Shown here: piece after piece, positions 30,742 to 62,586 of the stretch
How the letters are laid out: every line of letters starts with the position of its first letter
Numbering within the stretch: position 1 is the stretch's first letter
Assembly: GCA_016213935.1 (NCBI GenBank)
Contig: JACQZG010000009.1
Location: 647-64,646 of the forward strand
From: Nitrospirota bacterium
Lineage (GTDB): Bacteria; Nitrospirota; Thermodesulfovibrionia; UBA6902
Length of the DNA: 64,000 nucleotides
Direction: 5' to 3'
Position numbers and translations under genes: made by a program
The notes under the pieces: model-generated
Database searches by the model: none
The model's input: the letters and a program-made list of their open reading frames with translations, nothing else
Told to the model about the DNA's origin: nothing

Positions 30742-30744
30742 GGG

Positions 30745-34043: not shown

Positions 34044-34044
34044 T

Positions 34045-36156: not shown

Positions 36157-36303
36157 TTATAAATAGCCGTGAGGATTAATCAAATGAAAGATAAACAAAA
36201 AATAAATACAGGAGGGTTGCCTATGGAACACAAAACCAAATCCATTTTAGATGGAGAATCAACACTATACTTTATTAAAAGTATAACACCAAAAGGAGGA
36301 ATT

Positions 36304-37299
36304 ATGAAAAAAGTACTGTTCACAATGTTCGTAGTACTTGCGGCCGCGTTCATGCTGTATGGAATCGCAGACGCAATCTCCGGCGTGTGCTCCGGATGCC
36401 ACACAATGCACAACAGTCAGGACGGCGCTGCAGTAAACGGTTCAGGCCCCGCAGACATCCTGCTCAAGAGCGACTGTATGGGCTGTCACACCACAGCGTC
36501 AGCAGTTGGACCGAGGGTTGATAATGCGACCTTGCTGTCAGCAGGCTCATTTGCAGATGCCTTTGTAACATCAGACACAAACACCCACAACGTTGAGGAC
36601 CTCGTAGGATTTAATGCCGGCGGCGCTGACGACATTCTTACCTCTAACGATCCACCGGGAGGAAGCGCGGCTGTTTTAACCAAGTTCTCTGGTGCTAACC
36701 AGTTGAAGTGCGCCGGTAGTAACGGCTGTCACGGTAGCCATGATAGTAAAGCTACAAGCTGGGCAGGCATACAGGGTTATCACCATGCAGGCGGGTCAAT
36801 CTATAAGTTCCTTGAGGTTGCTACTGACAACGAAGGCGCAGGCACCGCTGTTGCAGGCACAAAAGATTCAACCTACGAATCAGGCGGAGCAACCGCATCC
36901 AAACATAATATTTACGTGTCCGACGCGGCAACAGGCATCAGCGCATTCTGCAATAACTGCCATGATGTCTTCCACGGCGCGGCGACCACTGACCTGACCA
37001 CCAACGGCCTTTGGAACCGCCACCCGACCGATATATCAATTGCTACTTACCTTGGGGCTTCGGGTGTAACAGTTGATTATGTGAATAACCCGTTTGCATT
37101 CACAGCGGCATACGCAACCACATTAAGCACAACCTCGGCAACAGGTTATGACGCAACTAATGGTTATGTAATGTGTCTGTCTTGCCATCGCGCACACGCG
37201 TCTGAGTACGCAGACCTGCTCAGGTTTAACTATGCTTCACAGAGCGCAGGCGGCGGCGGTACAACAGGATGTCTCGGATGTCACGTGAATCAGAGGTAA
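36304..37299 (+). CDS. OmcS-like hexaheme c-type cytochrome (nanowire-type), paralog 1
   Basis: Strong RBS (AAAGGAGGAATT-ATG) and a signal peptide (MKKVLFTMFVVLAAAFMLYGIADA). The mature N-terminus [17 protein letters not shown] matches the OmcS CEGCHTMHNS start. C-terminal MCLSCHRAHASEYADLLRFNY matches OmcS NCLSCHRAHASGFDSMTRFN. Heme sites: CSGCH, CMGCH, C-x5-CH (CAGSNGCH), CNNCH, CLSCH, CLGCH. Confidence 0.75.
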   Translation: MKKVLFTMFVVLAAAFMLYGIADAISGVCSGCHTMHNSQDGAAVNGSGPADILLKSDCMGCHTTASAVGPRVDNATLLSAGSFADAFVTSDTNTHNVEDLVGFNAGGADDILTSNDPPGGSAAVLTKFSGANQLKCAGSNGCHGSHDSKATSWAGIQGYHHAGGSIYKFLEVATDNEGAGTAVAGTKDSTYESGGATASKHNIYVSDAATGISAFCNNCHDVFHGAATTDLTTNGLWNRHPTDISIATYLGASGVTVDYVNNPFAFTAAYATTLSTTSATGYDATNGYVMCLSCHRAHASEYADLLRFNYASQSAGGGGTTGCLGCHVNQR

Positions 37300-37308
37300 T
37301 TTAATCCG

Positions 37309-37373
37309 CAAGGGGAACCCGTTGGGGTTCCCCTTGCATCTGAGTGGTTAAGCAACTCTTAACCACTCAGATG
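37309..37373 (+). other. Two consecutive perfect stem-loops between OmcS-like paralogs (terminator/attenuator or RNA processing element)
   Basis: CAAGGGGAACC-cgt-GGTTCCCCTTG, immediately followed by CATCTGAGTGGTTAAG-caact-CTTAACCACTCAGATG (16 bp stem). No clear U-tract follows. Confidence 0.5.
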
Positions 37374-37397
37374 CAAGATACGAAAGCAAGGCATATT

Positions 37398-38609
37398 ATG
37401 ATTAAAATAATCATAAAAGAAATGGCAAGAATAAATAATACCAATAGGTATGTTTTAATATTTATTGCAGCCTTGGCTTTAGTTGCTTCTTCAGTAAATG
37501 CAAATATTACAGGCGTATGTTCAAACTGCCATACAATGCATAATAGTCAGGACGGAGCAGCTGTTGTTGGGTCAGGCCCAAACGATGTTCTTTTAACTTC
37601 AGATTGTCTTGGTTGTCACGGCCAGGGCGGCAGCCAGAAGATAATCAGTATCGGGGGAAGTGAGATTCCCCAAGTATTGCATTCTGACGGCACAGGCGAC
37701 CTTGCAGGAGGAAACTTTAATTATATCGGCACACTCGGCGACAATAGAGGCCATAACATCGTTGATCTCGTTAATGGAGATGATGTGTTAGATATACCGC
37801 CCGGGGCTGAATATGGCGAGCATGCCAATCCCGCAAAGATGGTCACTGATTCCGTGCTTACATGCGCAGGCTCTAACGGTTGCCACGGGTTTAGGGCGAT
37901 TGGAGGGAGTTCGAATCTTCAGGCATTAAAAGGGGCGCACCATAAGAATATTACAACTGATTCCACAAGCGGATTTGATGACGATTACAACAGCTATAGA
38001 TTTCTCAGGAAAGTGAAGGGGCATGAGAATGACGGGCAGGTAAATTCCTCAACAAAATGGCAGAATGCCGATGCCAATAACCATAATGAATATTTCGGCG
38101 CTACGTCTCCTCTTGAGTTTGACGCAAACTGCGCAAAGTGCCATTCAAATGCGCCGTCAGCCAACATTGTTCCCCCGCAAAATACTATGAGCGGCTTCTG
38201 CGGCACATGCCATATGAATTTTCATCTCTTAACAGGAACAGAAACCTCTGATATGGGCATAGGAGATTCAACTGTATCTCCATTCAGGAGGCACCCGACT
38301 GATGTTGTGTTGCCTGGGGCAGGTACAGAATATAATAACTATACATCGTACAGTGTGGAGGCTCCTGTAGCGAGGGGCGTGGTTCCTGACAGTATGAGCA
38401 ATGTCGTAACACCCGATAACAGCGGCGTACAGGGTGCGATTGTAATGTGCCTTTCCTGCCATAAGGCGCACGCATCTCAATATCCCGATATGCTGAGGTG
38501 GGATTATGACGGTATGGTTGTCGGCACAACCGGGGCTTCAGCCTTTTTTTCCATTGTCGATAGAAACCGCAGGTATTTATTGCATCTCAGCTTATTTATT
38601 GAAGAATAA
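37398..38609 (+). CDS. OmcS-like hexaheme c-type cytochrome, paralog 2
   Basis: Signal peptide ([27 protein letters not shown]). [26 protein letters not shown]-x5-CH (CAGSNGCH), [14 protein letters not shown] and [23 protein letters not shown]. The start is ambiguous (ATG at 37398 or 37422). Confidence 0.7.
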
Positions 38610-38647: not shown

Positions 38648-39628
38648 ATGCGTTCAATAAGACTTCAAACAAGAAAGATAATGACATTGATTAAACATGT
38701 TTTAAATCCATCTGTCATTATTGTTTTATTTGTTTTATTTGGAACAGTCAGACCTGTTTCATTAAATGCCCAGGGGCCTCTTGTCAGGTATTATATGGCA
38801 TTAGAGTATGACGAAAATGATGAGAGACTTGTCAGGCCCTCTTTTGCGCAGTATGAAAATGTAATGAATGAAATTTATGTAATTGATGCCAGGCAAAGGG
38901 TGCTGATATATACTTCTGACCTTTTTCCGGTTCTTTCACTCGGCAAGAGCCGTAAGATACTGAATCCCGAAGGTTTGACAGTTGATTCTAACGGCAATCT
39001 TTATGTTGTTCAGACAGCCACGCCTGAAGATTTGAGAAACAGGGTTTCCGTTTACAATGCCTGCCTCAAATGGGAGCGTGATATCTTTTTTGAGGGCTTT
39101 GAAGGCGCTGATAAATTTGTGCCGTATCGCCTTGCAAAAGATTCAAAGGGCAATCTTTTTGTTGCAGGAATACGCTTCCCGGGAGTTCTGATATTTGATG
39201 CTGATTATAACTTGGTAGAAATAATATCTCCGCAGGAAAATGATAGGAAGGCGTTGATTATGAATGTCCATATTGATGACACGGGCCGGATATATCTTGT
39301 AAGCGAGGAAGAAGGGCATATTTATGTTTATGATGAAAATCGAAAGTTCATCTATCAGTTTGGGGAAAAAGGCGGCAGTTCCGGCAAGTTGAGCAGGCCG
39401 CGTGCCGTGGCAGTTGATAATAACAGGGGATGGCTTTATGTCGTTGATTATATGAGACACACGGTCAATACATATGACCGCAACGGCATGATGTTATTCG
39501 AGTTTGGCGGAATGGGATGGGGAGAAGGCTGGTTCAGGTTCCCTACAGACATTAGCGTTAATAAGGAAGGCGATGTGATGGTTACAGACCTTTTTAACCA
39601 GAGAGTACAGATCTTTAAGCCTTACTGA
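38648..39628 (+). CDS. Secreted NHL-repeat beta-propeller protein
   Basis: Signal peptide and repeated NHL-like units (SNGNLYVVQ..., RPRAVAVDNNRGWLYVVDYMRHTVNTYDRNG, VMVTDLFNQRVQIFKP). Confidence 0.8.
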   Translation: MRSIRLQTRKIMTLIKHVLNPSVIIVLFVLFGTVRPVSLNAQGPLVRYYMALEYDENDERLVRPSFAQYENVMNEIYVIDARQRVLIYTSDLFPVLSLGKSRKILNPEGLTVDSNGNLYVVQTATPEDLRNRVSVYNACLKWERDIFFEGFEGADKFVPYRLAKDSKGNLFVAGIRFPGVLIFDADYNLVEIISPQENDRKALIMNVHIDDTGRIYLVSEEEGHIYVYDENRKFIYQFGEKGGSSGKLSRPRAVAVDNNRGWLYVVDYMRHTVNTYDRNGMMLFEFGGMGWGEGWFRFPTDISVNKEGDVMVTDLFNQRVQIFKPY

Positions 39629-39642
39629 CGGTTGAAAATTTC

Positions 39643-41244
39643 ATGTCAATATTATTTTGCAATTTGAGGCGGTTTTTCAGAAATAAAAATTTGGTGTTGT
39701 GTATTATTATTTTTATATACGGCTGCTCCATCGTTTTAAATGATAATAGTGTAACTGAAGACCAGAAGCCTCCCGATTACAACAGCCAGATAACGCTTTA
39801 TTTTAATGGCCATGAGAAGACATCTCTTGATTTGGAATTTCTTTTAACCGGGGTTGACATGGTTTTTGTTGATGGAACATCAATAGGGATTCTTAAAGGG
39901 CCTGTAACATTGAGGTCATCTGAAGTTAAGGGCAGGCAGGTGCGCCTTGGCGAGATATATGTCCCTGAAGGCGAATGCAAAGAAGTCCGTTTGCATATCA
40001 CTAAAGCATCGATAATAACCCCTGACGGCACTGCATCACTTTCAATTTCTTCAGATACGGTATCCATGCCTTTTAATCTTGTCATTAAAAGGAGGCAAAA
40101 TTCCACGCTATTTTTAAATTGGAACCCTGACGGGTCTGTGACAGATAACTATCTTTTTACCCCTTTGTTCTATTTGGGAAAAGAGGCCCCAGACCTTATT
40201 GGTCAGCTTCTGTATGTTACCAATGAAGATTCTAATAATGTGTCGGTCATAAACCGGTATTACGGCAAGGTCGTCGGAACCGTGCTCGTAGGCAAAAGGC
40301 CGAGGGGTATTGCCGCTGGATTGAAGGAAGACCGGTTAAGGGTATATGTTGCAAATTCAGGTTCAAACAGCGTATCGGTAATTGATCCCAATACAAATAC
40401 AGTAGAACATGAAATCCCTTTAAGATTCGGTAGGGAACCGGTCGCGATTGCTGTTGCGAAAGGGCCTTTTGGGAGAGAACTCGTTTTCGTGGCTAATTAT
40501 GCTTCCGGCTCGGTATCTGTGATAGACCCTTTATCTTTTCAGGAGCTTGAGAGAGTCGGGGTCGGAAACGGGCCTGTGGCTGTAGCCGCGGATCCTCCCG
40601 TCGAATTTTATTCTGGTTCCGCATCTCTCAGCATTGAAGAGGTTAACTTAATAAAAGATTATAGAGGCAAATTTGTTAATGTCTATGTTGCCAATAAAGA
40701 GTCAAACAGCGTATCAGTAATTCGAATGGACATGCTTAATAACAGGGTGGAAGATGTTCAGAATGTCGCTGTTGAATGGAGCCCTGTCGCATTGTCCGTT
40801 GACTTCAAAAGAGGCAAAGTCTATGTCGCAAATTACGGCTCTGACAGGCTGTCTGTCATAGATATCGTATCGCTAATACGCGGGGATGGTTCTGCAGAAA
40901 TAAGCTCAATTGAAAATACCGGCCGTTACACAGTGGGAGTCGCAACCAATCCATTCATTGACAGGCTCTACCTGCTTAAATCCGTCTCGTCCGAAGTTTT
41001 ATTTTTAAACCCTTATTCTGATGCAGGAAATGATATATTTTCTGTATCAGGCTCTGTAATGGGTATTGCCGCAACAGGTCTTTCGCCGAGATCATTACAA
41101 TTTGACCTTCAATCCAGAAATCTCTTTGTGGTTAACAGCGGCTCCGACAGCGTTTCAATCATTGACGTCACTACCCGTAATGAAAAAAAGAGAATTTCCG
41201 TGGGGCGTAATCCTTACGGCGTAACAATGTTCTCGGTGAAATGA
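39643..41244 (+). CDS. YVTN-family beta-propeller repeat lipoprotein
   Basis: Lipobox (IFIYGC). Repeated ~40 aa units of the YVTN type (LYVTNEDSNNVSVINRYYGKV, VYVANSGSNSVSVIDPNTN, VFVANYASGSVSVIDPLSF, VYVANKESNSVSVI, LFVVNSGSDSVSIIDVTT). Confidence 0.75.
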   Translation: MSILFCNLRRFFRNKNLVLCIIIFIYGCSIVLNDNSVTEDQKPPDYNSQITLYFNGHEKTSLDLEFLLTGVDMVFVDGTSIGILKGPVTLRSSEVKGRQVRLGEIYVPEGECKEVRLHITKASIITPDGTASLSISSDTVSMPFNLVIKRRQNSTLFLNWNPDGSVTDNYLFTPLFYLGKEAPDLIGQLLYVTNEDSNNVSVINRYYGKVVGTVLVGKRPRGIAAGLKEDRLRVYVANSGSNSVSVIDPNTNTVEHEIPLRFGREPVAIAVAKGPFGRELVFVANYASGSVSVIDPLSFQELERVGVGNGPVAVAADPPVEFYSGSASLSIEEVNLIKDYRGKFVNVYVANKESNSVSVIRMDMLNNRVEDVQNVAVEWSPVALSVDFKRGKVYVANYGSDRLSVIDIVSLIRGDGSAEISSIENTGRYTVGVATNPFIDRLYLLKSVSSEVLFLNPYSDAGNDIFSVSGSVMGIAATGLSPRSLQFDLQSRNLFVVNSGSDSVSIIDVTTRNEKKRISVGRNPYGVTMFSVK

Positions 41245-41288: not shown

Positions 41289-43529
41289 GTGAGTAATAGA
41301 CGTTTAATAAACGCTCTTCTTTTTTTGATTTTATTTATCGGCGGTTCCTCGGCAGTCTTCGCTGACCTGAACGGAAACGCAAGCATTGACTATACCTCGT
41401 TTCAGGAGGATAGGGGCGATGCCAGTATTACCCAAAACGATACTCAGAAGCGTCTAAATTTCTATTTCACTAAACCGATAACCTCCCTTCTTTCTTACCA
41501 GCTAACTTTGAGGGCTGAGATTTCCGATTCTGATTCCAGTGATTCACAGGGCGCTGATTATACCTCTCTTAAGGAAGTCTATGAACCCGGAATAGATTTT
41601 TCGCTTAAAAATGTTATGTACGAATTCGATTCGGGGTTTCATCACAGAGATGAGCTTTATTCTAATTCAGGACAGGCTTATGATAACAAAAGAATCACTG
41701 ATTTTTTCTACAGCCGGTTTGCTGTCAGCCCTCTTAATCTCCCCACTTTTTCCGCTGAACTTAGCAGGATTAAGGAAAGCGATAACATCATGCTCGACAG
41801 GCAAAACAGTATTTATTTTTTGAGGTCATCTTATGAACTGCCTTCTCCCGAGCTTGACTTCAGGGCAAATCTCAATTATTCACATGCAGAAGAAGAGAAC
41901 CCCGGGAAAATATTGTATAAAAACGTCAGCGATGCTTACTCCGGTGATTATCAGTTATCTGATTCACGCATTTTTTTGTCTGGGAAAATAATACTAAATG
42001 GAAGTTACAGGGGCAATTTCAGCAGTGCCGACAGCACGAGTTATTCCTCAGATACCGGATATGTCCTCTTTGAGCGCACCAAACTCGGCGGCCTCCACGC
42101 AAAAGGAACGGCGCTGAATCCTGACGTTGACAGTTTGCCTTCTGAAACAGCTCTTGCTGATGATAATTATATTCTTTCGACATCAATTAATCTCAGCATA
42201 TCAGGTTCTGACGAATATCATAATATAGGGATTTGGGTGCCTTCTGACGATTCTGTCGAGAAACTGTACATTTACGTTAACAAAGATGTAACAGGCGATT
42301 TTTCTTTAAAAAGCATCTCGAACTGGAAAGTCTATAAGAGCGATTTTAACCTGGCAGGCACATGGCTTCCGGTAACGATCAGCAGTGTTTCGGTTTCTCT
42401 ATTTGATCTTGCAAACACCATTTATCGTTACGAAATCGAATTTTCAGCTCCGCATAATGCGAGATATTTCAAAGCGGTTAACATGGATGTCTCCGATATT
42501 TCCAATGTTGCTGTCACAGAGATAGAGGCTTACGGGTCAGAACTCATTCCTGATTCCGGAATATTGACGAGCTCTTCTAACGCACTCGGCCAGAGGCTGG
42601 ATTTTTTATCGGTCTTTCAGCCATTAAGCAAATTCAGATTTAGTTTTAATTATTCGATTGATAAGTCTGACCAGAATCCGTCATCTGTTTTTAGCTCGAT
42701 CACATCTCTTTTTACAAGCATTTTTTCCAAATCAAGGAGCGAAGAAGATCAATCTGATTCCAGCAGCACAATCAATAAAGGCCTCGCACTTAATGCAAAC
42801 TGGTTAACTCATAAATTTCTCACGACCAATTTTCGTTTTCAGCGGAATGAATCATATGACAATGCCTTTAAGACTGATAGGGCGGCTACTACTTATGAAC
42901 TATCTTTTAATTCATCGCCGATTGAAACGCTTAACGCAAGTTTTAGTATGGTAAGAGGGGATAGTTATCAATTTGAAGTAAAAGAGTCGACATATGATTC
43001 GGCAATATTAAGCCTTGGCACCCGATTATACAGGGATTTGAATATGGTGACGGATATAGGATATTCACGGTCTGACTCCGTAAGCGGGGGAGATTCAACT
43101 TCAAGGTATATTTCAGGTAGCATTGATTCGGTTTTTACAGATAAATTGGAGGGTAGCTTGAGCTACAATATAAACTGGAAATCGTCTGGGGAATCAGAAG
43201 TTCAGTCAAAAAGCAGTTCGGCAAAGATAACCTATCGTCCAGGCAGATTTGTTAATTTATCCTGTGATTTTAATTATTCTTCTAATGACGCAGGTTCCGC
43301 CATGTCGGAAATAATAACTGCGGAATGGCGGCCTGTCCCCGTTTTGCAGTTGAATGCCAATTACCAGCACTCAAGTACAAGCTCAGCGAGTATTACAAAG
43401 GATGTTTTTTCGGGCAACGGCACATGGCATATTAAAAAGTTTTTACATGCGCAGCTTTCATTTTTATATGAGAAAGAAGGCGAAAGCACGGAACAGAATG
43501 TCAGTACCGGCATGAGATTATTGTTTTAA
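41289..43529 (+). CDS. Large Ser/Asp-rich secreted protein, predicted outer-membrane beta-barrel (porin-like)
   Basis: Signal peptide (ALLFLILFIGGSSAVFA). 746 aa with alternating polar/aromatic beta-strand-like segments and a C-terminal ...TGMRLLF (terminal Phe, typical of OM beta-barrels). Confidence 0.5.
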   Translation: MSNRRLINALLFLILFIGGSSAVFADLNGNASIDYTSFQEDRGDASITQNDTQKRLNFYFTKPITSLLSYQLTLRAEISDSDSSDSQGADYTSLKEVYEPGIDFSLKNVMYEFDSGFHHRDELYSNSGQAYDNKRITDFFYSRFAVSPLNLPTFSAELSRIKESDNIMLDRQNSIYFLRSSYELPSPELDFRANLNYSHAEEENPGKILYKNVSDAYSGDYQLSDSRIFLSGKIILNGSYRGNFSSADSTSYSSDTGYVLFERTKLGGLHAKGTALNPDVDSLPSETALADDNYILSTSINLSISGSDEYHNIGIWVPSDDSVEKLYIYVNKDVTGDFSLKSISNWKVYKSDFNLAGTWLPVTISSVSVSLFDLANTIYRYEIEFSAPHNARYFKAVNMDVSDISNVAVTEIEAYGSELIPDSGILTSSSNALGQRLDFLSVFQPLSKFRFSFNYSIDKSDQNPSSVFSSITSLFTSIFSKSRSEEDQSDSSSTINKGLALNANWLTHKFLTTNFRFQRNESYDNAFKTDRAATTYELSFNSSPIETLNASFSMVRGDSYQFEVKESTYDSAILSLGTRLYRDLNMVTDIGYSRSDSVSGGDSTSRYISGSIDSVFTDKLEGSLSYNINWKSSGESEVQSKSSSAKITYRPGRFVNLSCDFNYSSNDAGSAMSEIITAEWRPVPVLQLNANYQHSSTSSASITKDVFSGNGTWHIKKFLHAQLSFLYEKEGESTEQNVSTGMRLLF

Positions 43530-43534
43530 TAATA

Positions 43535-44164
43535 ATGCGCAATAATGAAGCTTTAAATAAAAATATCAATGGGTTATATTATTCTATGTTTAATTCGGCA
43601 ATCAGGCATGGTTCATTGATTTTTCGTTTTTCGTTTTTATTATTTTTTGTAACATACGGGTGCAGCGTTATGAGCGCGTATGTAAGGCCCGGATTTGATA
43701 AAGCTTCAGTGAAAAAAATAGCGGTTCTTCCTTTTGAAAATTATACCGAAGATAAATTTGCAGGCCAGAAGATGAGGGCTAAGGTTATGATCGAGCTTCT
43801 TAATTCCGGATTCGAGGTTGTGGAAGAGGGGGAGGTTACAAGGATATTGAAGGAGTTAAAAGTGTATCAGGTCGCATCAATAACCGTTTCAGACATTCAG
43901 GAACTTGGCAAGAGGCTCGGCATTGACGCGGTGGTTAAAGGTTCAACAGGGGAGATGGAAGATAAGAAAGGCGTAGCCTTAACATATCCTGAAGTATCCA
44001 TTAATTTAAGCATACTCGATGCAAAATCCGGAGATATTGTCTGGTCCGTGTCGCATAGTGCCGGCGGTCCGAGTTTCTGGACAAGGCATTTTGGAACAGA
44101 GGGGGATACCCTGGATAAGGCCGCTTATAAAGTTGTAAAAGAGTCTATTAATACATTAAAATAA
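43535..44164 (+). CDS. Small lipoprotein, paralog family member 1 (hypothetical)
   Basis: Lipobox (FVTYGC). KIAVLPFENYT ... GIDAVVKGS; similar to the next two genes. An alternative start is the ATG at 43586. Confidence 0.5.
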   Translation: MRNNEALNKNINGLYYSMFNSAIRHGSLIFRFSFLLFFVTYGCSVMSAYVRPGFDKASVKKIAVLPFENYTEDKFAGQKMRAKVMIELLNSGFEVVEEGEVTRILKELKVYQVASITVSDIQELGKRLGIDAVVKGSTGEMEDKKGVALTYPEVSINLSILDAKSGDIVWSVSHSAGGPSFWTRHFGTEGDTLDKAAYKVVKESINTLK

Positions 44165-44182
44165 ACACATTTATATAATATA

Positions 44183-44779
44183 ATGAACTTAATATTGAAG
44201 TTGAAATATAATACAATTTTTATTTATCTAATAATTGGCTGTTCGTTTTTTTTAAACGGATGCTTCGCCTCTCAACCGACATATCATATTAAGGAGGATG
44301 TTGATTTCAGTTATATAAAAAGGGTAGCTATATTGCCGTTGCAGAATTTTACCAGCGACAAAAACGCTTCTGATGCGGTTAGGCAGGTGCTTATCACAGA
44401 ATTTTTGTCTTCAGGGTTGGCCGATGTTGTTGTCCCGGGAGACGTTCTGGCTGCCCTTAATAATATAGGCGTTAGCTCTATTTCCTCTCCAAGTATTGAA
44501 GAAATAAGATCAATCGGAAAATTTCTGAAAGTACAAGCTGTCATTACGGGTTCTGTAGACAAATTAGCTGAGATCAGGAGCAGTAATGTTACTTCGGCCG
44601 AGGTTACTTTGACTTTAATGATGGTGGACACAGGAGCAGGCGATATTCTCTGGTCCGTAACGGCCACAAGCGGCGGGGCAGGCTTTATGTCAAGGCATTT
44701 TGGCGCTGATACCCCGACATTGAGTGAAACGATTTCAGATGTTGTAAAAAGGTCTATTCAGACATTGACAGGGAATTAA
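44183..44779 (+). CDS. Small lipoprotein, paralog family member 2 (hypothetical)
   Basis: Lipobox (LNGC). RVAILPLQNFTSD ... VQAVITGSV ... ILWSVT ... HFGADTPTL parallels member 1. Confidence 0.5.
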   Translation: MNLILKLKYNTIFIYLIIGCSFFLNGCFASQPTYHIKEDVDFSYIKRVAILPLQNFTSDKNASDAVRQVLITEFLSSGLADVVVPGDVLAALNNIGVSSISSPSIEEIRSIGKFLKVQAVITGSVDKLAEIRSSNVTSAEVTLTLMMVDTGAGDILWSVTATSGGAGFMSRHFGADTPTLSETISDVVKRSIQTLTGN

Positions 44780-44819
44780 TTTTTACTTGCTGTGTGTAAT
44801 ATAATGTGTGTAATATAAT

Positions 44820-45896
44820 ATGATGCCTAAATCAGACAGACTGACTTCTTTTTTTTCTTTAGTTAAATTTTCTTTACTGTTGCATAGTTTTTTGTTTTTC
44901 TTTTTGTTGTGCGACGGTATTGTCTTTGCCCAAGCAGTCACTGATATTAAGGAAGCCGATCAGAAAATAATCATATTTCCTTTTGATAATTATAGCGATA
45001 AGGTAGAAGCCGCTGACATTGTCATGCCTGTTCTCGTGGATAGTTTTATAAATAGAGGGTATAAAGTCATTGATGAAAAATTGCTTTATGACTTTTTATG
45101 TAAAGAGAAAGTAAGGGAAACAGGGTATATCTCAAGGGATCTTGCGAGAAAATTAAGAGATAAATTCGGGGTTGATTTTATTCTGGTTGGAGCGATTATC
45201 AGATTTGCTAATATTGACGTTCCTGATTTGGGTTTGACGGCAAGGCTTGTTGATGCTTCAAACGGCAACATCTTATGGGCTGATTATTCCTCAGCTGCTG
45301 GAGATGACTTTACAGCCGTATTAGGATTGGGGAATGTAAGGGAGATTGAAATGCTCGTTTCCATGGTGATCAATAATCTTTTGGCGTCATTCAGCTTAGA
45401 ACCTTTTGGCAAGCATGCCGAATCAGCTTACAAGATAGCGGTAATGCCTTTTCAGAATGATTCTGAAAATAAGGATGCCGGAATGATAGCCTCACAGTTT
45501 TTTATAGTTTCTTTGTTTAAAAGCAAAAGCTTTATCCCTGTTGAATACGGTGAAATTAAAACAAATATTTTTGATCTAAAGTTAAGGACAAAAGGTGAGC
45601 TGGATTATAGAAGTGTCAGCGAGTTAATGGAAAGGCTGAATGTTGATGGTTTTGTTATAGGCACAGTTGAACTATATTCCGAAGGGCAGAGGCTGCTTTC
45701 TCCCCCTGCGGCCGCAGTAACCGCAAGACTTCTGAATGCGCGTAACAGCAGGATGCTATGGTATAACAGGTACCAAATGACCGGTGATGATGATGTTATA
45801 ATTTATGATTGGCGCAGACTCAGGAGCGTTGATAAGGTTGCAAACAGGATAATTTCAAAACTTGTTAATGGGATGGGAGCTATTCAATGGCAGTAG
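44820..45896 (+). CDS. Secreted protein with two tandem copies of the same lipoprotein-family domain
   Basis: KIIIFPFDNYSD...ILWADYS and KIAVMPFQNDSEN...MLWYNRY are two repeats of the module seen in the two preceding genes. Confidence 0.5.
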   Translation: MMPKSDRLTSFFSLVKFSLLLHSFLFFFLLCDGIVFAQAVTDIKEADQKIIIFPFDNYSDKVEAADIVMPVLVDSFINRGYKVIDEKLLYDFLCKEKVRETGYISRDLARKLRDKFGVDFILVGAIIRFANIDVPDLGLTARLVDASNGNILWADYSSAAGDDFTAVLGLGNVREIEMLVSMVINNLLASFSLEPFGKHAESAYKIAVMPFQNDSENKDAGMIASQFFIVSLFKSKSFIPVEYGEIKTNIFDLKLRTKGELDYRSVSELMERLNVDGFVIGTVELYSEGQRLLSPPAAAVTARLLNARNSRMLWYNRYQMTGDDDVIIYDWRRLRSVDKVANRIISKLVNGMGAIQWQ

Positions 45897-47521
45897 AGCG
45901 CGGGATAAAATTTATTATTAATAGCCGATATCTGCAATATATTTTTGCTGGTATCTTATTGATTTTTATAACATATGGCTGCGCTTCAGTAAGACAGGCT
46001 CAGAGCGTATTGGCAATTGTTGACGGTGAATCCATAACAATTGATGACGTTAATTACGCGTTGGCAATTGAGCATAGAAGGGAGAATCTTTCAGCTACAG
46101 AAAAATTGGATATAAAAGGCTTCATTGATTCCATTATCGGCGACAAACTTATTATACAGGAGGCCCGCAGAATTGGTTTGGACCAGTACCTTGAGGTTAA
46201 AGACAAGCTGAAGGCATATATTCTCAGGGAATCTGTGGTGAAACTTCATGAGGATGAGATTGTTAAAAAAGTGAATGTTAGTGATGAGGAGATTCTTAAT
46301 TATTACAAAGACAATTACAAACGAATTACATATGATATTGTCGAATTAAACACAATGGAAGATGCGCTGAGCATATTAAACAGGCTTAACGAGGGCGAAG
46401 ATTTTAAGGAGATAGCTCTTACACTGCCTAATTATGAAGCAAAGGATAAAGAGAGGGTTTCAACCTTTGGTTCTTTTGATAAACTTTTTCAGGAAAAGAT
46501 TTCCGATCTGGGCACGGGTGAATTCAGCGACGTTATTGAGTTAAATAATAGTTTTTACATTATCAAGATACTTGGCAGGGAGGATGCTCCGCCTGAAAAG
46601 TTTTCAGAAGCAGCGAGCCATATTACCAAGATTATAAGAAACAAGAAGGAGGATGACAGGGGGAATGAATATCTCTCTGAACTGCGGGCTGCCTCTAACA
46701 TTGTAATTGATAATGAGATTCTCTCTTCCATTAAATTGCTGAAAGGAGAAGATGAGCGGGATAAGTGGGTTAATGACACCAGTCCTCTTGTTGTTTTGGA
46801 CGGAGAGATTTTCACTGTCAAGGATTTTATATTTGTTCTTCCTCCCGTTGTTAAAATTTCTAACGAAGTTTTGATAAAAAACTGGATTGACAGAAAGATT
46901 GTTGACAGAGAGGCTTTGTCAAGAAATTACAATCTTGATCCTGAACTAAGCCGTTACAGGGATCAGGTTTTTAAAAATGTTTACATTAAGGAATATGTTT
47001 TGCCAAATATAAATGTTTCCGAGGATCTCCTGAGGAATTATTATAACGAGCATTTAGATAATTATATGGAACCTCAACGTTACAGGATGCAGGTGATTAC
47101 TGCAGAGACAAAGGAGTCTGCTGAAGCGATTTACGACAGCCTTTTAAAAGGTGCTGATTTTGCATGGCTTGCGAAAATGAGGTCAACCGATGTTAAAACT
47201 GCCGAAAAAGGGGGGAATCTGGGCTGGCAGGCTATTTCGTTATTGCCTAAGCCGTTAATAGAGGTTATTGATTCCATTGAAGCTGAGGGAATAAGCCCGG
47301 TACTGTCAGTAGACTCAGTATATGCCATCTACAGGGTCCAGGAAAAGGCCGCTCCACTGGTTAAGGATTTTAATTCAGTAAGACAGGATGTTTACAGGTC
47401 ATATTTTGCAGAGCAGTTTAAAAAATCATATAATGAATATATAGAAAAATTAAAGTCAGACGCCGAGATAATTATCAATGAGAATGCAATCAAGTCATTT
47501 GCTGAAATGTTTAAACCGTAG
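45887..47521 (+). CDS. SurA/PpiC-type peptidyl-prolyl cis-trans isomerase lipoprotein (periplasmic chaperone-like)
   Basis: Lipobox (ITYGC), a SurA-N-like helical region and a C-terminal parvulin domain (LLKGADFAWLAKMRSTD...GGNLGW...). Confidence 0.65.
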   Translation: MAVERGIKFIINSRYLQYIFAGILLIFITYGCASVRQAQSVLAIVDGESITIDDVNYALAIEHRRENLSATEKLDIKGFIDSIIGDKLIIQEARRIGLDQYLEVKDKLKAYILRESVVKLHEDEIVKKVNVSDEEILNYYKDNYKRITYDIVELNTMEDALSILNRLNEGEDFKEIALTLPNYEAKDKERVSTFGSFDKLFQEKISDLGTGEFSDVIELNNSFYIIKILGREDAPPEKFSEAASHITKIIRNKKEDDRGNEYLSELRAASNIVIDNEILSSIKLLKGEDERDKWVNDTSPLVVLDGEIFTVKDFIFVLPPVVKISNEVLIKNWIDRKIVDREALSRNYNLDPELSRYRDQVFKNVYIKEYVLPNINVSEDLLRNYYNEHLDNYMEPQRYRMQVITAETKESAEAIYDSLLKGADFAWLAKMRSTDVKTAEKGGNLGWQAISLLPKPLIEVIDSIEAEGISPVLSVDSVYAIYRVQEKAAPLVKDFNSVRQDVYRSYFAEQFKKSYNEYIEKLKSDAEIIINENAIKSFAEMFKP

Positions 47522-47537
47522 GTCAACAGCTTATCGT

Positions 47538-49490
47538 ATGTATATTTCAAAAATATCATTGTTATTTTTTTGCCTGATAATCTTTACTGTATTATCTTGC
47601 GCTCCTGCAACTCAGAAGTCTGCAAAAGGCCGTTTTAAGCAGAAAGAGTGTCTTGATTGCCATGAAGAGATACAGCCTGACTTGAAACGCCGAATTGTGC
47701 ATATTCCTTTACAAGAGCACAATTGCGAAGGATGCCATCTTCGTCACGGAAGGCTGGCTTTTAAATCATTTATAGAACGTGAAGAAAGAAAACTTTGCTT
47801 TATATGCCATACTGTCATGGAATCGGATATTCTGAAAAGAAAGCATGTTCATACGGTAATTCAAGAGAATAAATGCCTGCCATGCCATGAACCTCATGCT
47901 TCTGAGGCCCAGGCTCTTCAGAAGAATGCCGGGAACAGTCAATGTTTTGGATGCCATAATGATGCTACGTTTAAACGCGCGACTCGGCATAAACCCGTTG
48001 AAGACGGGTGCCTTATTTGTCATGATCCGCATGGGTCTGACTATAAGTCTAATCTTATTAAAGATGAGGTAGCTCTTTGCGAATCATGCCACAAGTTTAA
48101 TGAAAAGAATTTTATCGCAGCTCACAATAATTATCCAGTCGGCAAGGGCACTTGTATGGGCTGCCACACTCCGCACAGTTCGTCAAACAGCAAACTTCTC
48201 AGAGAGTATGTGCATGCGCCGGTCAGTAATATTGAGTGTTCTTCATGCCATCTGCCTTCTGAAGGCCCTAACCCCCTTTCGGTTTCATCAGTAGAAGGAA
48301 ATCTCTGCTATTCATGCCACACAAAAGAGAAAAAAGATTTCAATAAAAATTACAGACACCTCGTGGCCGAAAAGGAAGAGTGTTTGAAATGCCATAGCCC
48401 TCATGCATCTGATTATCCCAAAATCACCATTAAAAACAATGTGGATTTATGTTTAATGTGTCACGACAAGAAACCAAATGTAAACGTTAATAATTTACAT
48501 AGCCCGATAAGAAATAAAGGTTGTACCGCTTGTCATGACTCTCATGCTTCTGATAACCGGCTTTATCTTACTGCTCCTGAAAATGAGATATGTTTTACCT
48601 GCCATGAGGCTCTTAAGGATATGCTGAAAGAGGAGAATATACATGAACCCTTCATGAAGATTGAATGCCTGAAATGCCATGATACCCATGGCAGCAACTA
48701 TGCCGGCATGCTGAAGGTAACAGCCGAAGACCTTTGTTTCACCTGCCATAAAGATGAACAGAAGAATTACTTTAGAACATATATTCATACTCCTGTTAGC
48801 AATAAGAAATGTTCTTCTTGCCACCAATCTCATGTTTCTAAATTTAAGAAGCTGCTCACCGATGACCCTGAAAATATATGTATGAAATGCCATCAGGGCT
48901 TGGTTCAGGAGGAAGAAGGCATTTTTATCCACCAGCCGTTTAAGGAGAAAAAATGCAGTGTTTGCCATGATCCGCATGCAAGTGATAATATCGCTTCAAC
49001 TGTAAAACCTATGACTGAGCTTTGCTTCACATGCCATAAAAATATGGGGGAAGCATTAAACAAGTCTCTTAATAAGCATCTTCCCGTTGAGGAAGGGAAA
49101 TGCAATTCCTGTCATAATTCCCACTTGTCAAAAATAAAGAATCAACTCCTTAATCTTCCGAATGCTCTTTGCCTTACTTGCCATGAAAGGATAATTACGA
49201 CTACATCAAGAAGCGGACATATTGCAACTGAAGGCGTGGATTGCCTGAATTGTCATATATCTCATTATTCTGATTCTAATACGCTTTTAAAAGGTAAAGA
49301 CCCTGACATATGCCGTAAGTGCCACTCTGCAGATACTGAAAATCTTTTAAGGGTTCATAAGTCTCCGCTTGATGATATTTCCCGTTGTTCAAGCTGTCAC
49401 GAACCGCATGTTACTGAAAAGCCAGGGCTTCTGAAGAAAGTTGTTCATGACCCATTCAACCAAGGGCATTGTGAGGCATGTCATGAATAG
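47538..49490 (+). CDS. 26-heme c-type cytochrome lipoprotein built from ~13 doubled-CXXCH units
   Basis: Lipobox (FTVLSC) and 26 CXXCH motifs counted. The repeating unit is CxxCH-x(~20, with internal His)-CxxCHxxH(A/G/S)S, as in the paired-CXXCH family. Confidence 0.8.
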   Translation: MYISKISLLFFCLIIFTVLSCAPATQKSAKGRFKQKECLDCHEEIQPDLKRRIVHIPLQEHNCEGCHLRHGRLAFKSFIEREERKLCFICHTVMESDILKRKHVHTVIQENKCLPCHEPHASEAQALQKNAGNSQCFGCHNDATFKRATRHKPVEDGCLICHDPHGSDYKSNLIKDEVALCESCHKFNEKNFIAAHNNYPVGKGTCMGCHTPHSSSNSKLLREYVHAPVSNIECSSCHLPSEGPNPLSVSSVEGNLCYSCHTKEKKDFNKNYRHLVAEKEECLKCHSPHASDYPKITIKNNVDLCLMCHDKKPNVNVNNLHSPIRNKGCTACHDSHASDNRLYLTAPENEICFTCHEALKDMLKEENIHEPFMKIECLKCHDTHGSNYAGMLKVTAEDLCFTCHKDEQKNYFRTYIHTPVSNKKCSSCHQSHVSKFKKLLTDDPENICMKCHQGLVQEEEGIFIHQPFKEKKCSVCHDPHASDNIASTVKPMTELCFTCHKNMGEALNKSLNKHLPVEEGKCNSCHNSHLSKIKNQLLNLPNALCLTCHERIITTTSRSGHIATEGVDCLNCHISHYSDSNTLLKGKDPDICRKCHSADTENLLRVHKSPLDDISRCSSCHEPHVTEKPGLLKKVVHDPFNQGHCEACHE

Positions 49491-50778
49491 ATTGTACACA
49501 TTGAGTATCTTTAATTTAATCAGAGGTAAAAGCTTAAGTGTATTAATCTTTCAAGCTGTCTTTTTCACTATTATATTTCAATTTGATTTCGCTCATGCAA
49601 AAGCTGAGCTGACAGCGGCCGAACCAACGATTTGTTATAAATGCCATAAAGAGCTAAAAGATAATTTATCTGCTAAATATGTCCATTTCCTTTTTAAGCA
49701 GGGGAAGTGCAGTACATGTCATAATCCGCATGTTAGCAAGGATAAAGGCTTGTTAAGGGAGGATATTAATCCGCTGTGCCTTGGTTGCCATGAAAACATT
49801 AAGAATATAATCGCAACTGGACGTCAGCACAGCGCAATCAGAGACGGGGCATGCACTGATTGTCATTTTGCACATAGCAGTAATAATAACAACCTTATGG
49901 TTAAACCGGAAAAGGATCTTTGCTGGAAGTGCCATGAAGAACTAAAGCCTCAGCTTGAGAAAAAATATGCCTGTTCTCCATTCAAGAACGGGGATTGTTC
50001 AGCCTGTCACAATGCCCACGGCTCATCAGAAGACAATCTTTTGCACAGTAATCCTAAAGCGACATGTAAAAAATGTCACAATTCAGTCGGCTGCAAGTCA
50101 GGCAGTGTCTCTATATCAGCTTTAACGAAGGATATGAACTGCATATCCTGTCACTCAGGACATAGTTCCGATTCAAAAGGCATGTTAGGCCCGTATGGCC
50201 ATAAAGTATTTATTAACAAAGAATGCGTCAAATGCCATAAGCCCATAAAAGAGGGTGAGAAAATAACAACTCTTGCTGTTGGAGACGTCTTATGCCTTAA
50301 CTGCCATCGTGAAAAAACAGAGGTGATTGAAGATGATGTTCATGGAAGGGGCGATGCGTATTCTTGTACTTTGTGTCATGACCATCATGCTTCCGAAAAG
50401 AGCAATCTTACCAAGAGTGAATCAAGGCTATGTGTTAAGTGTCATGCTGATACCGAAAAAAGAACTGTCTTTATGGAGAAGGCCCTCAAATCAAAACGTG
50501 AATGCGAGCCTATAAAGAACAGAGAATGTTTTGAGTGCCATGTCCCTAAACATTCGAGGCGGATTTTGAATTTTAAACAGGATGTTTTTGTACTCTGCAA
50601 TGAATGTCATGAAACCGAGCACAAAATAACGCATCCTCTCGGCGCCGATGTAATCGATGTTCGTAACGGTCAGCCAATTACGTGCGTCACATGCCATAGC
50701 ATGCATTCTGCAAAAGCAAGCTATATGCTTACTCATGACGGAAAAAGAACTTTGTGCATTCAGTGCCATAAATATTAG
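49483..50778 (+). CDS. 16-heme c-type cytochrome (secreted)
   Basis: The start ATG overlaps the upstream stop by 8 nt (ATGAATAG). Signal peptide and 16 CXXCH motifs counted, again in paired units (CYKCH...CSTCHNPHVSKD). Confidence 0.8.
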   Translation: MNRLYTLSIFNLIRGKSLSVLIFQAVFFTIIFQFDFAHAKAELTAAEPTICYKCHKELKDNLSAKYVHFLFKQGKCSTCHNPHVSKDKGLLREDINPLCLGCHENIKNIIATGRQHSAIRDGACTDCHFAHSSNNNNLMVKPEKDLCWKCHEELKPQLEKKYACSPFKNGDCSACHNAHGSSEDNLLHSNPKATCKKCHNSVGCKSGSVSISALTKDMNCISCHSGHSSDSKGMLGPYGHKVFINKECVKCHKPIKEGEKITTLAVGDVLCLNCHREKTEVIEDDVHGRGDAYSCTLCHDHHASEKSNLTKSESRLCVKCHADTEKRTVFMEKALKSKRECEPIKNRECFECHVPKHSRRILNFKQDVFVLCNECHETEHKITHPLGADVIDVRNGQPITCVTCHSMHSAKASYMLTHDGKRTLCIQCHKY

Positions 50779-50906: not shown

Positions 50907-51926
50907 ATGAAGTTACCGCTCTATAACATAATTTTTTTTTGCGGTTTGATGTTTGTTCTTTATTTGTCCGAGTGCAGCGCTGATATGTCGGGTAAATTCT
51001 GCAGCGATTGTCATACAATGCATAACAGCCAAGCTTCTGAGGTTATGACATTTGATGACAGTTTGACGCCTTACAAGGCATTGCTACGTGGCTCTTGCGA
51101 CGGCTGTCACTCATCTTCCTCTAATTCCGTGTGGATTGACTCGGTTGCCGGGGCCCCTATCGTATATAATACTGTTGAACCTTCATATGCGAACAATGGA
51201 CTTGCCGGCGGCAATTTTTATTACACAAGTACAACCGATGATGATAAAGGCCATAATATTTTTTTGTTAAATCCTGATGATATATTAGGCAATACTCCGC
51301 CTGGAGGGAATAGTCTCGATCAGCAACTCAATTGTTCAGGAACTTACGGTTGTCACGGGCATAACGGCAGGCAGGTCGGAGATGTCGCAATTGAGGATCA
51401 ATTGAGTGCGATTATGGGCGGGCATCACGGGATTAATTCCCCTATGGACGGCAGTGTCACTGAGGTATCAAAAAGTTATCGTTATCTGCTTGGCATAAAG
51501 GGTATGGAGGATTCTGATTGGGAACATGACAATACTGCCACAAGCCATAATGATTCAAGCTCAACCGATTCTATAAGTTTTTTTTGCGCTTAATGCCATG
51601 GTAATTTCCATACATGGACAGGGGGCGAGTCTGAAGTGGGAAGCGCTTCTCCCTGGCTTAGGCATCCGACCGATATGGTTTTGCCGGCTTCCGGGGAATA
51701 CAATTCATATACAAACTATGACCTTTTGGCGCCAGTCGCTCGGGCAGATCCCGATTCTGTTGCCGACACTACGCGTGCTTATCCTGGAACCGACATTGTT
51801 ATGTGTCTTTCATGTCATCGGGCGCACGCCTCTCCTTATTACAAAATGCTCAGGTGGGATTATAAAAGCACAGTTTTATCAACTGCATTATCCGGATGCA
51901 ATGTTTGTCATACGTCAAAAAATTAA
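50907..51926 (+). pseudogene. OmcS-like hexaheme cytochrome paralog 3, interrupted by an in-frame TAA (51591-51593) inside a CXXCH motif
   Basis: Signal peptide, [17 protein letters not shown] and C-x5-CH (CSGTYGCH). At the fourth site the paralogs read CxxCH but this copy reads FFCA-TAA-CHGNFH. The same frame then continues (WLRHPTDMVLP ... CLSCHRAHASPYYKMLRWDY ... CNVCH) to 51926. Confidence 0.6.
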
Positions 51927-54165: not shown

Positions 54166-55068
54166 ATGGATTTATTTTGGCTTAGCATAATGAATATTAT
54201 ATTTCTTCCCTTAATAGGGTTGATAATGGGAACAGCATTTGCCAACGAAATTCCGAAAGAAACTAATATTCACTTCGCAGGTAAATATTGTGAAGAGTGT
54301 CATTCTCAAACGCCGGAAAAAGGCAAAGATAAATACTTGAAATATGGAAACGATTATGGTCGAACTTGCCGGTGCCATGAATATACCCCAGGGACATACA
54401 TTCACCCGGTTTTTATAAAACTTTCTGATGAGAAAAAGTCCAAGATACCCGATAATTTTCCTTTGGACAACGGAGAAATAACATGTCTGACATGTCATGA
54501 TATATATCTTCAGTGTCAGGACAGAGTTGTTTTAAAACTTTTCAACAGGCTTTTTCTAAGGGGAGGTCCTTACTTGCAGAGGACAGACATATGCTTTAAT
54601 TGTCATAATCGAAGCGAATATGCCAAACTTAATCCGCACAATCAGCTTGATGAGTATGGGAATATAATAGGCGAAAAATGCCTCTATTGTCATACGGAAA
54701 AGCCCGATGAGAAGCTGGATGCATATAAGGAAACATCTTCCGGCCATCAAGTCAAGCTTATTGGAAACTTTGATGCATTGTGTCTCAGATGTCATCCTGA
54801 AAAAGGAAGATTTCATCCGATAAACGCTGATCATCTTAGGAGACCTTCTGCGGTAACTTTGTCCAATATTAAAGAGGCGGAAAAGAAATACAATGTTATT
54901 CTCCCATTAAATGACAAGGGCGAAATCACATGCGCAACTTGTCATAATCCTCATGAAAAGGGCGTGTTGCCTCGCAAAAAGGCCTCTGCCTCAGGTGCAA
55001 GTGAGAAATACAGGCTTCGATTATCCGGCATGACTGGTGAGATATGCAGGGCATGCCATAAAAAATAA
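54166..55068 (+). CDS. Heptaheme (possibly octaheme) c-type cytochrome, secreted
   Basis: Signal peptide. Motifs CEECH, CLTCH, CFNCH, CLYCH, CLRCH, CATCH, CRACH, plus an atypical CRCH (C-x-CH) at 54367-54378. Confidence 0.7.
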   Translation: MDLFWLSIMNIIFLPLIGLIMGTAFANEIPKETNIHFAGKYCEECHSQTPEKGKDKYLKYGNDYGRTCRCHEYTPGTYIHPVFIKLSDEKKSKIPDNFPLDNGEITCLTCHDIYLQCQDRVVLKLFNRLFLRGGPYLQRTDICFNCHNRSEYAKLNPHNQLDEYGNIIGEKCLYCHTEKPDEKLDAYKETSSGHQVKLIGNFDALCLRCHPEKGRFHPINADHLRRPSAVTLSNIKEAEKKYNVILPLNDKGEITCATCHNPHEKGVLPRKKASASGASEKYRLRLSGMTGEICRACHKK

Positions 55069-55084
55069 TATAGGGGGTGGAAAT

Positions 55085-56161: not shown

Positions 56162-56186
56162 ATTATAAATCTTACATGGAGGTAAC

Positions 56187-61289: not shown

Positions 61290-61529
61290 AAATCGTAACA
61301 GTTTTGCCTGCCATGCTTAATCATTATGCAATATTTATAAGGTAATTAATTTTTCAATATCAGGTGTATTACCGATATATCAGGCAAGTCATTTTTTTAT
61401 TACAAAATGGCTAATGCATTATCACATAAGAAAAAATAGCGCCATATTTATAACCGCTGAATTCTATCAGCATAATCATATAATAATTTATTATTTCACA
61501 TTAAGTAAGGTTTGTTGTAAAAAAATTAT

Positions 61530-62582: not shown

Positions 62583-62586
62583 AGAC

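Follow-up and report, generated by a model that had tools for sequence, protein, structure and literature searches.

The 64,000-nt stretch of Nitrospirota DNA analyzed here (the window, to whose positions all coordinates refer) carries, between about 36.3 and 51.9 kb, an operon-like block that is, by sequence homology, the version of the Geobacter osc (omcS-companion) cluster in a Thermodesulfovibrionia-type metagenome-assembled genome (MAG) of this phylum. Within the block, a predicted outer-membrane β-barrel corresponds to OscE, two small lipoproteins (lp1 and lp2) to OscF, a third protein of the lipoprotein family (lp3) to OscG, a peptidyl-prolyl isomerase (PPIase) to OscH, and a 26-heme cytochrome to OscI. 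The window adds a further case of a system described only recently, not a new kind of electron conduit. We consider it probable that the barrel and a PelC-like ring form an outer-membrane portal which, with a PPIase chaperone, serves an extracellular cytochrome of the OmcS type, and that periplasmic multiheme proteins wire this portal electrically.

A Nitrospirota version of the osc cluster

In the Geobacter literature, oscC is GSU2501, oscI is GSU2495 (26 hemes, about 70 kDa) and oscJ is GSU2494, and an eight-gene block extends over GSU2500–GSU2493. These sources assign OscH to the folding, OscE, OscF and OscG to the secretion, and OscD to the morphology of OmcS nanowires, and one of the studies lists oscI and oscJ as periplasmic. 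For comparison with the window, we used two Geobacter loci around omcS (L047 and L048) that were found with an OmcS sequence query. There, omcS and oscC are followed by a YVTN β-propeller, an unannotated protein of 718–749 amino acids (aa), a 200-aa GNA1162/LpoB-like lipoprotein, a 392-aa protein, a PPIase, and a 26-heme-type cytochrome. Pairwise BLASTP matched each window protein, from the propeller through the 26-heme cytochrome, to its positional counterpart in Geobacter, and in reciprocal tblastn each Geobacter protein mapped to the expected window open reading frame (ORF). The barrel matches OscE at E 7e-17 by BLASTP, and hhalign aligns the two over 684 columns with 99.7% probability and E 2.3e-26. 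Further matches link lp1 to OscF (30% identity, E 1e-25), lp2 to OscF (32%, E 4e-28), lp3 to OscG (25% over the full length, E 4e-32), the PPIase to OscH (25% over 441 columns, E 2e-20), and the 26-heme cytochrome to OscI (36%, E 2e-81). On the basis of this collinear homology, the window genes therefore correspond to OscD through OscI, with a 16-heme cytochrome at the OscJ position. The names OscE, OscF and OscG were assigned by position between oscD and oscH, together with the published anchors oscC, oscI and oscJ; the equivalence of the 16-heme gene with oscJ is likewise positional, and the Geobacter loci end before that gene. An earlier note on this DNA, made from the sequence alone, had described the components as non-orthologous to those of Geobacter, a view that the collinear homologues contradict.

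The likeness to the cluster of Geobacter sulfurreducens (GSU2505–GSU2493) lies in gene content and gene order, with pairwise homology for OscD–OscI and for the OmcS family, and in both organisms a sensor kinase and a sigma-54 response regulator are encoded upstream. The two systems nevertheless differ in several respects. Identities between the proteins are only 20–36%, Nitrospirota possess two OscF paralogues in place of one, and OscI and OscH are predicted lipoproteins in the window but carry ordinary signal peptides in Geobacter sp. DSM 9736. The window contains no OscB (spermine-synthase-like) gene, its OscD-like protein lacks the N-terminal CxxCH of the L047 OscD, and its OmcS-like proteins carry a C-x5-CH in place of the third CxxCH. 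In most Nitrospirota loci, moreover, an OmcS-like gene is located downstream of the 16-heme gene.

From the barrel to the 16-heme cytochrome, all genes lie on the + strand and are separated by gaps of 5–40 nt or joined by short overlaps, i.e., 10 nt between lp3 and the PPIase gene and 8 nt between the 26- and 16-heme genes if the latter starts at 49483. A terminator scan returned no convincing intergenic terminator between 38648 and 50778, and a scan for sigma-70 promoters was uninformative. The order read initially from the sequence (barrel, three lipoprotein-type genes, PPIase, 26-heme and 16-heme cytochrome) is indeed present, and the heme numbers are exact, with 26 CxxCH motifs in ORF 47478–49490 and 16 in ORF 49441–50778. 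The 26-heme gene, described initially as translationally coupled, probably has no overlapping start, as alignment of orthologues places the likely start at ATG 47538, 16 nt past the PPIase stop.

A predicted barrel with PelC-like lipoproteins

The OscE-like protein (41289–43529, + strand, 746 aa, GTG start) carries an N-terminal cleavable signal peptide ending in AVFA, terminates in RLLF, and consists of 16.8% Ser. An AlphaFold2 model built with 51 homologues reached a mean predicted local distance difference test score (pLDDT) of 89.3. In this model, DSSP assigns 11 long antiparallel strands (residues 26–253), a β-sandwich insert (approximately 257–420), and 17 long strands (425–745), which amounts to about 28 barrel strands. 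The protein is accordingly predicted with confidence to be a large outer-membrane β-barrel, in agreement with the initial proposal for this Ser-rich ORF. The insert, encoded at 42057–42548 (+ strand) between barrel strands 11 and 12, is a discoidin (F5/8 type C, CBM32-like) β-sandwich. By the topology rule for outer-membrane proteins, an insert after an odd-numbered strand should face outward; the discoidin domain follows strand 11 and would therefore occupy an extracellular loop. The barrel itself is HY809_02700 of a Nitrospirae MAG, and its 57 full-length homologues derive essentially all from Nitrospirota MAGs and are all unannotated. When 1.84 billion representatives were scanned in full with HMMER, the family comprised 1255 clusters (50% identity) at E <= 1e-3 and 544 clusters at E <= 1e-30. 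At present, about 1,250 of its representative clusters go under the label "hypothetical" or "discoidin domain-containing".

Downstream of the barrel gene follow, all on the + strand, lp1 (43535–44164), lp2 (44183–44779), and lp3 (44820–45896). The proteins lp1 and lp2 share 32% identity (E 2e-34), lp1 matches each half of lp3 at E about 1e-13, and the two halves match one another at E 8e-11. Common to all is a module of the form (K/R)(I/V)A(I/V)(L/F)P(F/L)xN...(I/M)(L/V)W, of which the three genes encode four copies, two of them in tandem in lp3. The paralogy and the duplicated module in the third gene had been recognized in the earlier note, which spoke of a lipoprotein family triplet. This description holds for the paralogous and lipoprotein-type character of the genes, less so for lp3 as a lipoprotein: it may carry a signal-peptidase-I site (AQA) instead of a lipobox, a feature that varies among lp3 orthologues. 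The second OscF paralogue, lp2, is present in nearly all Nitrospirota loci examined.

Pfam assigns lp1 to the GNA1162-like and LpoB families above their cut-offs, and lp3 to the GNA1162-like and FlgO families. When the profile of the OscF-like family was searched against the PDB, homologues of PelC (5t11 and 5t10, E 4e-9) and PelC itself (9h80_C, E 8e-6) ranked ahead of GNA1162, LpoB and CsgG. An AlphaFold2 model of lp1 (pLDDT 88.8) gave the same picture, with all of the top 17 Foldseek matches being PelC at template modelling (TM) scores of 0.72–0.85. By sequence profile and predicted fold, the small lipoproteins are PelC-like; readings of the CsgG/curli, LpoB or FlgO type ranked below PelC in the profile and Foldseek comparisons and were set aside.

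In the PelBC complex, 12 PelC lipoproteins assemble into a ring that sits at the periplasmic rim of PelB's barrel. The window resembles this system from Pseudomonas aeruginosa (PDB 9h80; PelC 5t0z, 5t10, 5t11) in that lipoproteins of PelC fold are encoded directly after an outer-membrane barrel gene, and this analogy makes a ring of the four PelC-like modules beneath the barrel probable. The resemblance ends at the barrel: with about 28 strands, a discoidin insert and no TPR domain, it is unrelated in size and architecture to PelB, which combines a TPR domain with a small barrel. Furthermore, the window modules are heterogeneous (four modules from three genes) where Pel employs a single PelC, and the presumed cargo is a cytochrome instead of a cationic polysaccharide. 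A periplasmic location of the PelC-like modules would agree with the arrangement in one Nitrospirota relative (L003, 12259–13602), whose first PelC-like lipoprotein is 447 aa long and carries an OmpA peptidoglycan-binding domain at its C-terminus.

These similarities raise the question of whether the barrel, a PelC-like ring, and the carbohydrate-binding domain might constitute a Pel-like channel for export of an exopolysaccharide or glycoconjugate that merely adjoins cytochrome genes. The PelC-likeness of the lipoproteins in both sequence and fold, the CBM32/discoidin domain of the barrel, and two Wzy_C/PglL-like ligase genes just upstream (32175–35805) would fit such a function. However, no pelA, pelD, pelE, pelF or pelG and no glycosyltransferase genes were found among the ORFs annotated around the block, whose neighbors are cytochromes, propellers and regulators, and a barrel of about 28 strands without a TPR domain is not what a PelB would look like. 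Linkage to the PPIase gene and to the 26- and 16-heme genes is kept across three phyla, whereas the Wzy_C-like genes were not seen in related loci with upstream DNA available, and the Geobacter literature ties the genes of the block to OmcS. We regard a polysaccharide channel as highly improbable.

Similar in logic are the curli CsgG and chaperone-usher pathways, in which a periplasmic chaperone and an outer-membrane channel serve an extracellular protein polymer. The window lipoproteins show weak matches to the CsgG fold and the barrel shows matches to ushers, but the former stay below Pfam cut-offs and well below PelC, and the latter reflect a similarity generic to large barrels. Neither an usher plug nor an Ig-like chaperone is present.

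The PPIase

The OscH-like protein (45887–47521, + strand) is a predicted lipoprotein PPIase whose N-terminal region resembles SurA and which contains two parvulin domains. Pfam detects Rotamase_2 in two stretches (E 5e-28) and a weak SurA_N match, and the protein has a TYGC lipobox-like motif, with a GCAS-type lipobox kept in the Nitrospirota orthologues; the parvulin/SurA-type lipoprotein initially proposed here is thereby confirmed. Its Geobacter counterpart OscH reportedly interacts with OmcS.

Alternatively, the PPIase and the small lipoproteins could be general envelope-biogenesis factors (SurA-, LpoB- or LptE-like) that fold and insert the large barrel and have no direct role with cytochromes. 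Very large barrels, LptD among them, depend on a lipoprotein partner of their own, and the weak SurA_N matches of the PPIase as well as the Pfam matches of the lipoproteins to LpoB and GNA1162 can be counted on the same side. Against this view, the closest solved relative of the lipoproteins is PelC and not LpoB, and the citing literature assigns OscH to OmcS folding. In addition, expression of OmcZ nanowires independently requires a PPIase, and the operon concerned lacks such a barrel. A purely housekeeping role in barrel assembly therefore seems to us improbable, and we retain the chaperone of an OmcS-type cytochrome as the preferred function of the PPIase.

The 26- and 16-heme cytochromes

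The OscI-like cytochrome (47538–49490, + strand; its ORF opens at 47478) is a probable lipoprotein: the Cys of its xTCAP lipobox is kept in Nitrospirota and Desulfobacterota orthologues, unlike in Geobacter sp. DSM 9736. In addition to its similarity to Geobacter OscI, it shares 38% identity with the 26-heme protein of Desulfobacterota. It scores 282.7 bits against TIGR03508 (the DmsE/MtrA family, cut-off 192.2) in six repeated stretches, and its only match in the PDB is MtrA (6r2q_A, E 1.4e-14), with 26 hemes compared to 10 in the MtrA type. In the local PDB copy of 6r2q, MtrA chain A is named "Cystathionine beta-synthase" and the MtrB chain "Uncharacterized protein", which makes a name-based reading of such matches misleading. 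The 16-heme cytochrome that follows (49483–50778, + strand; ORF opening at 49441) occupies the same position in all loci and is 33% identical over its full length to a 16-heme protein of Desulfobacterota (L043 c418, E 2e-70).

MtrCAB, PioAB and the porin-cytochrome (Pcc) cluster OmaB-OmbB-OmcB of Geobacter likewise combine a large outer-membrane barrel gene with a neighboring multiheme cytochrome composed of MtrA/DmsE-like modules. The block could thus be read as a self-contained conduit of the Mtr type, in which the MtrA-like 26-heme lipoprotein would thread the ~28-strand barrel and pass electrons outside directly, while the lipoproteins and the PPIase would serve as assembly or gating accessories and the OmcS-like proteins as optional acceptors. 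That MtrA is the only solved relative of the 26-heme protein, which also exceeds the curated DmsE/MtrA cut-off, argues for this idea, as does the constant association of the barrel gene with those of the 26- and 16-heme cytochromes, which extends to the Desulfobacterota loci where no OmcS-like gene lies within 10 kb. Yet the barrel does not belong to the MtrB/PioB or OmbB families, with no NCBIfam or Pfam match at E <= 0.1; MtrB is a good generic structural match for it, but no better than TonB-dependent receptors, ushers or porins, and the ~28 strands with a discoidin insert set it further apart. A surface decaheme cytochrome of the MtrC/OmcA type was not found in the cluster (TIGR03507, 53 bits versus a cut-off of 209), and the extracellular candidates that flank it are OmcS-family proteins. 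PelC-like lipoproteins, a PPIase and β-propellers, all three present in the window, are absent from Mtr and Pcc clusters. Finally, the Geobacter literature assigns OscE, OscF and OscG to OmcS secretion and not to conduction, and its listing of oscI and oscJ as periplasmic points in the same direction. A self-contained Mtr-type conduit is, in our estimation, unlikely, although it and a filament portal are not mutually exclusive and may be complementary. The porin-cytochrome logic invoked in the earlier note is therefore reasonable insofar as it pairs a barrel with a periplasmic multiheme partner related to MtrA, but the cluster is not of the Mtr/Pcc type, and the flanking OmcS-family genes (36304–38609 and 50907–51926) had not been connected to it.

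Conservation of the block

We examined synteny in 28 Nitrospirota loci with at least 7.5 kb of sequence upstream of the 26-heme gene. All but one of them (27/28) keep the order NHL propeller, YVTN propeller, barrel, lp1, lp2, lp3, PPIase, 26-heme and 16-heme cytochrome, and this order persists in relatives down to 34% barrel identity. A profile search further reached barrels annotated as "discoidin domain-containing" in Desulfobacterota MAGs, with the same gene order and adjoining a ccm operon. In these loci (L043–L046), a full block of propeller, barrel, PelC-like, PPIase, 26-heme, 16-heme and NHL genes is located beside ccmABC(D)EF. Together with Geobacter, these loci extend the co-occurrence of barrel and cytochromes, originally proposed for the window, well beyond it. 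Because its peptide patterns were too lineage-specific to reach Geobacter, a contig scan with the 26-heme alignment recovered Nitrospirota loci and, beyond these, just a few from Planctomycetota.

Two variations on the conserved arrangement were observed. In Desulfobacterota L043–L046, the OscG position is occupied by a 464–500-aa protein with an N-terminal PelC-like module followed by Ig-like/CHU_C-like domains. The complete chromosome CP070788.1 (L028, 1–10000) contains OscG-like, PPIase, 26-heme, 16-heme and OmcS-like genes and is the single locus without barrel, OscF-like and propeller genes directly upstream of OscG/OscH.

OmcS-family cytochromes and β-propellers

Three genes of the OmcS family, all on the + strand, flank the block. 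Cytochrome A (36304–37299; the ORF opens at 36169 and the likely start is ATG 36304) has five CxxCH motifs and one C-x5-CH. It matches OmcS in the PDB (6ef8, E 1.4e-9) and Geobacter OmcS by BLASTP with 28% identity over 388 columns (E 2e-17), and the family alignment shows the CHTMH motif, distal histidines and heme motifs to be conserved with OmcS. Cytochrome B (37422–38609) is 26–27% identical over nearly its full length to OscC, OmcT and OmcS (E 1e-9 to 2e-11). The third gene (50907–51926) resides at a conserved Nitrospirota position, and tblastn with its orthologue from L001 aligns 338 residues at 71% identity in one frame. In all Nitrospirota OmcS-like proteins examined, a C-x5-CH (e.g., CAGSNGCH or CSGTYGCH) stands where Geobacter OmcS has its third CxxCH (CSSCH). 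It occurs in the window at about 36750–36775, 37900–37925 and 51320–51345, as well as in L001, L005, L012, L015 and L033, and would be an unusual heme-attachment spacing if the site is functional.

Between cytochrome B and the barrel, two β-propeller proteins are encoded on the + strand. The first (38648–39628; Pfam NHL and SBBP) is a homologue of the gene immediately upstream of Geobacter omcS, as shown by BLASTP matches to L047 x315 (E 2e-14) and L048 x312 (E 4e-11), and has 48% identity to NHL521 of the Desulfobacterota locus L043. The second, an OscD-like lipoprotein (39643–41244) whose lipobox Cys is kept in orthologues, combines a DUF4382-like N-terminal domain with a YVTN/lactonase-type β-propeller (TIGR02276 YVTN repeats, E 1e-50) and aligns with Geobacter OscD over the full length at 27–28% identity (E 1e-33). 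In L047 (17193–18671), the OscD protein has a CxxCH (CSGCH) that overlaps the lipobox, a motif present in neither the L048 OscD nor the window protein.

Several points weigh against an outer-membrane portal for OmcS-type cytochromes. All functions are transferred from Geobacter by homology at 20–36% identity, and even for OmcS itself, reviewers call the secretion mechanism and the membrane anchoring speculative. The OmcS paralogues OmcT, OscC and OmcJ are not known to polymerize, so filament formation by the window cytochromes remains putative. Cytochrome B (38500–38609) lacks the final C-terminal CxxCH that all its orthologues carry, and no alternative reading frame restores this last heme motif. 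The third OmcS-family gene has a single in-frame TAA (51591–51593) within a heme motif, reading CA*CH against CAECH in the L001 orthologue; this stop would mark a pseudogene or a strain variant, or stem from an error in the assembly. Lastly, the block of the Desulfobacterota loci is complete without an OmcS-like gene within 10 kb, so the core may not be specific to filaments of the OmcS type.

The last point leads to a more speculative proposal, to which we attach a low probability: that the invariant core of a ~28-strand barrel with discoidin domain, a hetero-oligomeric PelC-like ring, a PPIase, and MtrA-like 26- and 16-heme cytochromes constitutes a distinct and widespread class of trans-outer-membrane electron portals. 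If so, a periplasm-spanning 26-heme lipoprotein would plug into the barrel via the PelC-like ring, and OmcS-type filaments would be one of several external partners, which would explain the complete Desulfobacterota blocks without an adjacent OmcS-like gene.

Flanking genes

Upstream of the cluster (29230–32145) lie genes for a sensor kinase of the HAMP/HisKA type and for a sigma-54-dependent response regulator, an arrangement that mirrors GSU2507 and GSU2506 upstream of Geobacter omcS. Sigma-54-like TGG-N8-TTGCW motifs occur directly 5' of cytochrome A (36141), cytochrome B (37323) and a response-regulator gene (53622), but the window as a whole contains five such motifs where 5.8 are expected, i.e., no enrichment over chance. 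The two tandem Wzy_C/PglL-like genes on the - strand (32175–35805; O-antigen ligase or protein O-glycosylation ligase type) are located between the regulators and the OmcS-like genes and may bear on the glycosylation of surface cytochromes.

Downstream (54166–57911 and 59040–63420), the window encodes multiheme cytochromes with 7, 6, 3 and 18 CxxCH motifs, two membrane proteins of the cytochrome b561 type, and a further NHL propeller. The cytochrome b and multiheme modules look like inner-membrane quinol-oxidizing (Cbc-like) entry modules, and with them the window would represent a large extracellular-electron-transfer island.

Proposed mechanism and implications

The portal for an OmcS-type cytochrome that we favor would operate as follows, with roles carried over from Geobacter to the homologues identified here and with a putative portal geometry. 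Hexaheme subunits of the OmcS family would be exported by Sec and loaded with heme in the periplasm, as suggested by their signal peptides and heme motifs. The membrane-anchored, double-parvulin OscH-like PPIase would chaperone the folding of these subunits, the role reported for its Geobacter homologue. The OscE-like barrel and a ring of PelC-like modules on its periplasmic face, contributed by lp1, lp2 and both halves of lp3, would constitute the outer-membrane portal; here, barrel and PelC-like fold are predictions from structural models, and ring formation and docking to the barrel would follow the PelBC analogy. Subunits might pass through this portal, or the filament base might sit in it, in line with the secretion role reported for Geobacter OscEFG. 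On the cell surface, the discoidin/CBM32 domain in the extracellular barrel loop would contact surface glycans or the polymer. The OscD-like and NHL β-propeller lipoproteins may act on filament morphology, the role reported for Geobacter OscD. Electrons would be carried across the periplasm to the portal or filament by the MtrA-like 26-heme lipoprotein and the 16-heme cytochrome, both presumably fed by the downstream cytochrome b and multiheme modules.

The window offers three structural handles on this system: a ~28-strand barrel with a predicted surface discoidin domain, OscF/OscG as putative PelC-like ring lipoproteins, and an OscI composed of MtrA-like modules. These suggest testable models, for instance a docking geometry like that of PelBC or a cytochrome inserted into the barrel as in MtrAB. 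A practical benefit is a better annotation of the barrel family. More broadly, the direct sequence evidence extends the nanowire-associated osc gene set to uncultured groundwater Nitrospirota of the Thermodesulfovibrionia type and to Desulfobacterota MAGs, which supports the view that the hardware for OmcS-type extracellular electron transfer is widespread beyond Geobacter.

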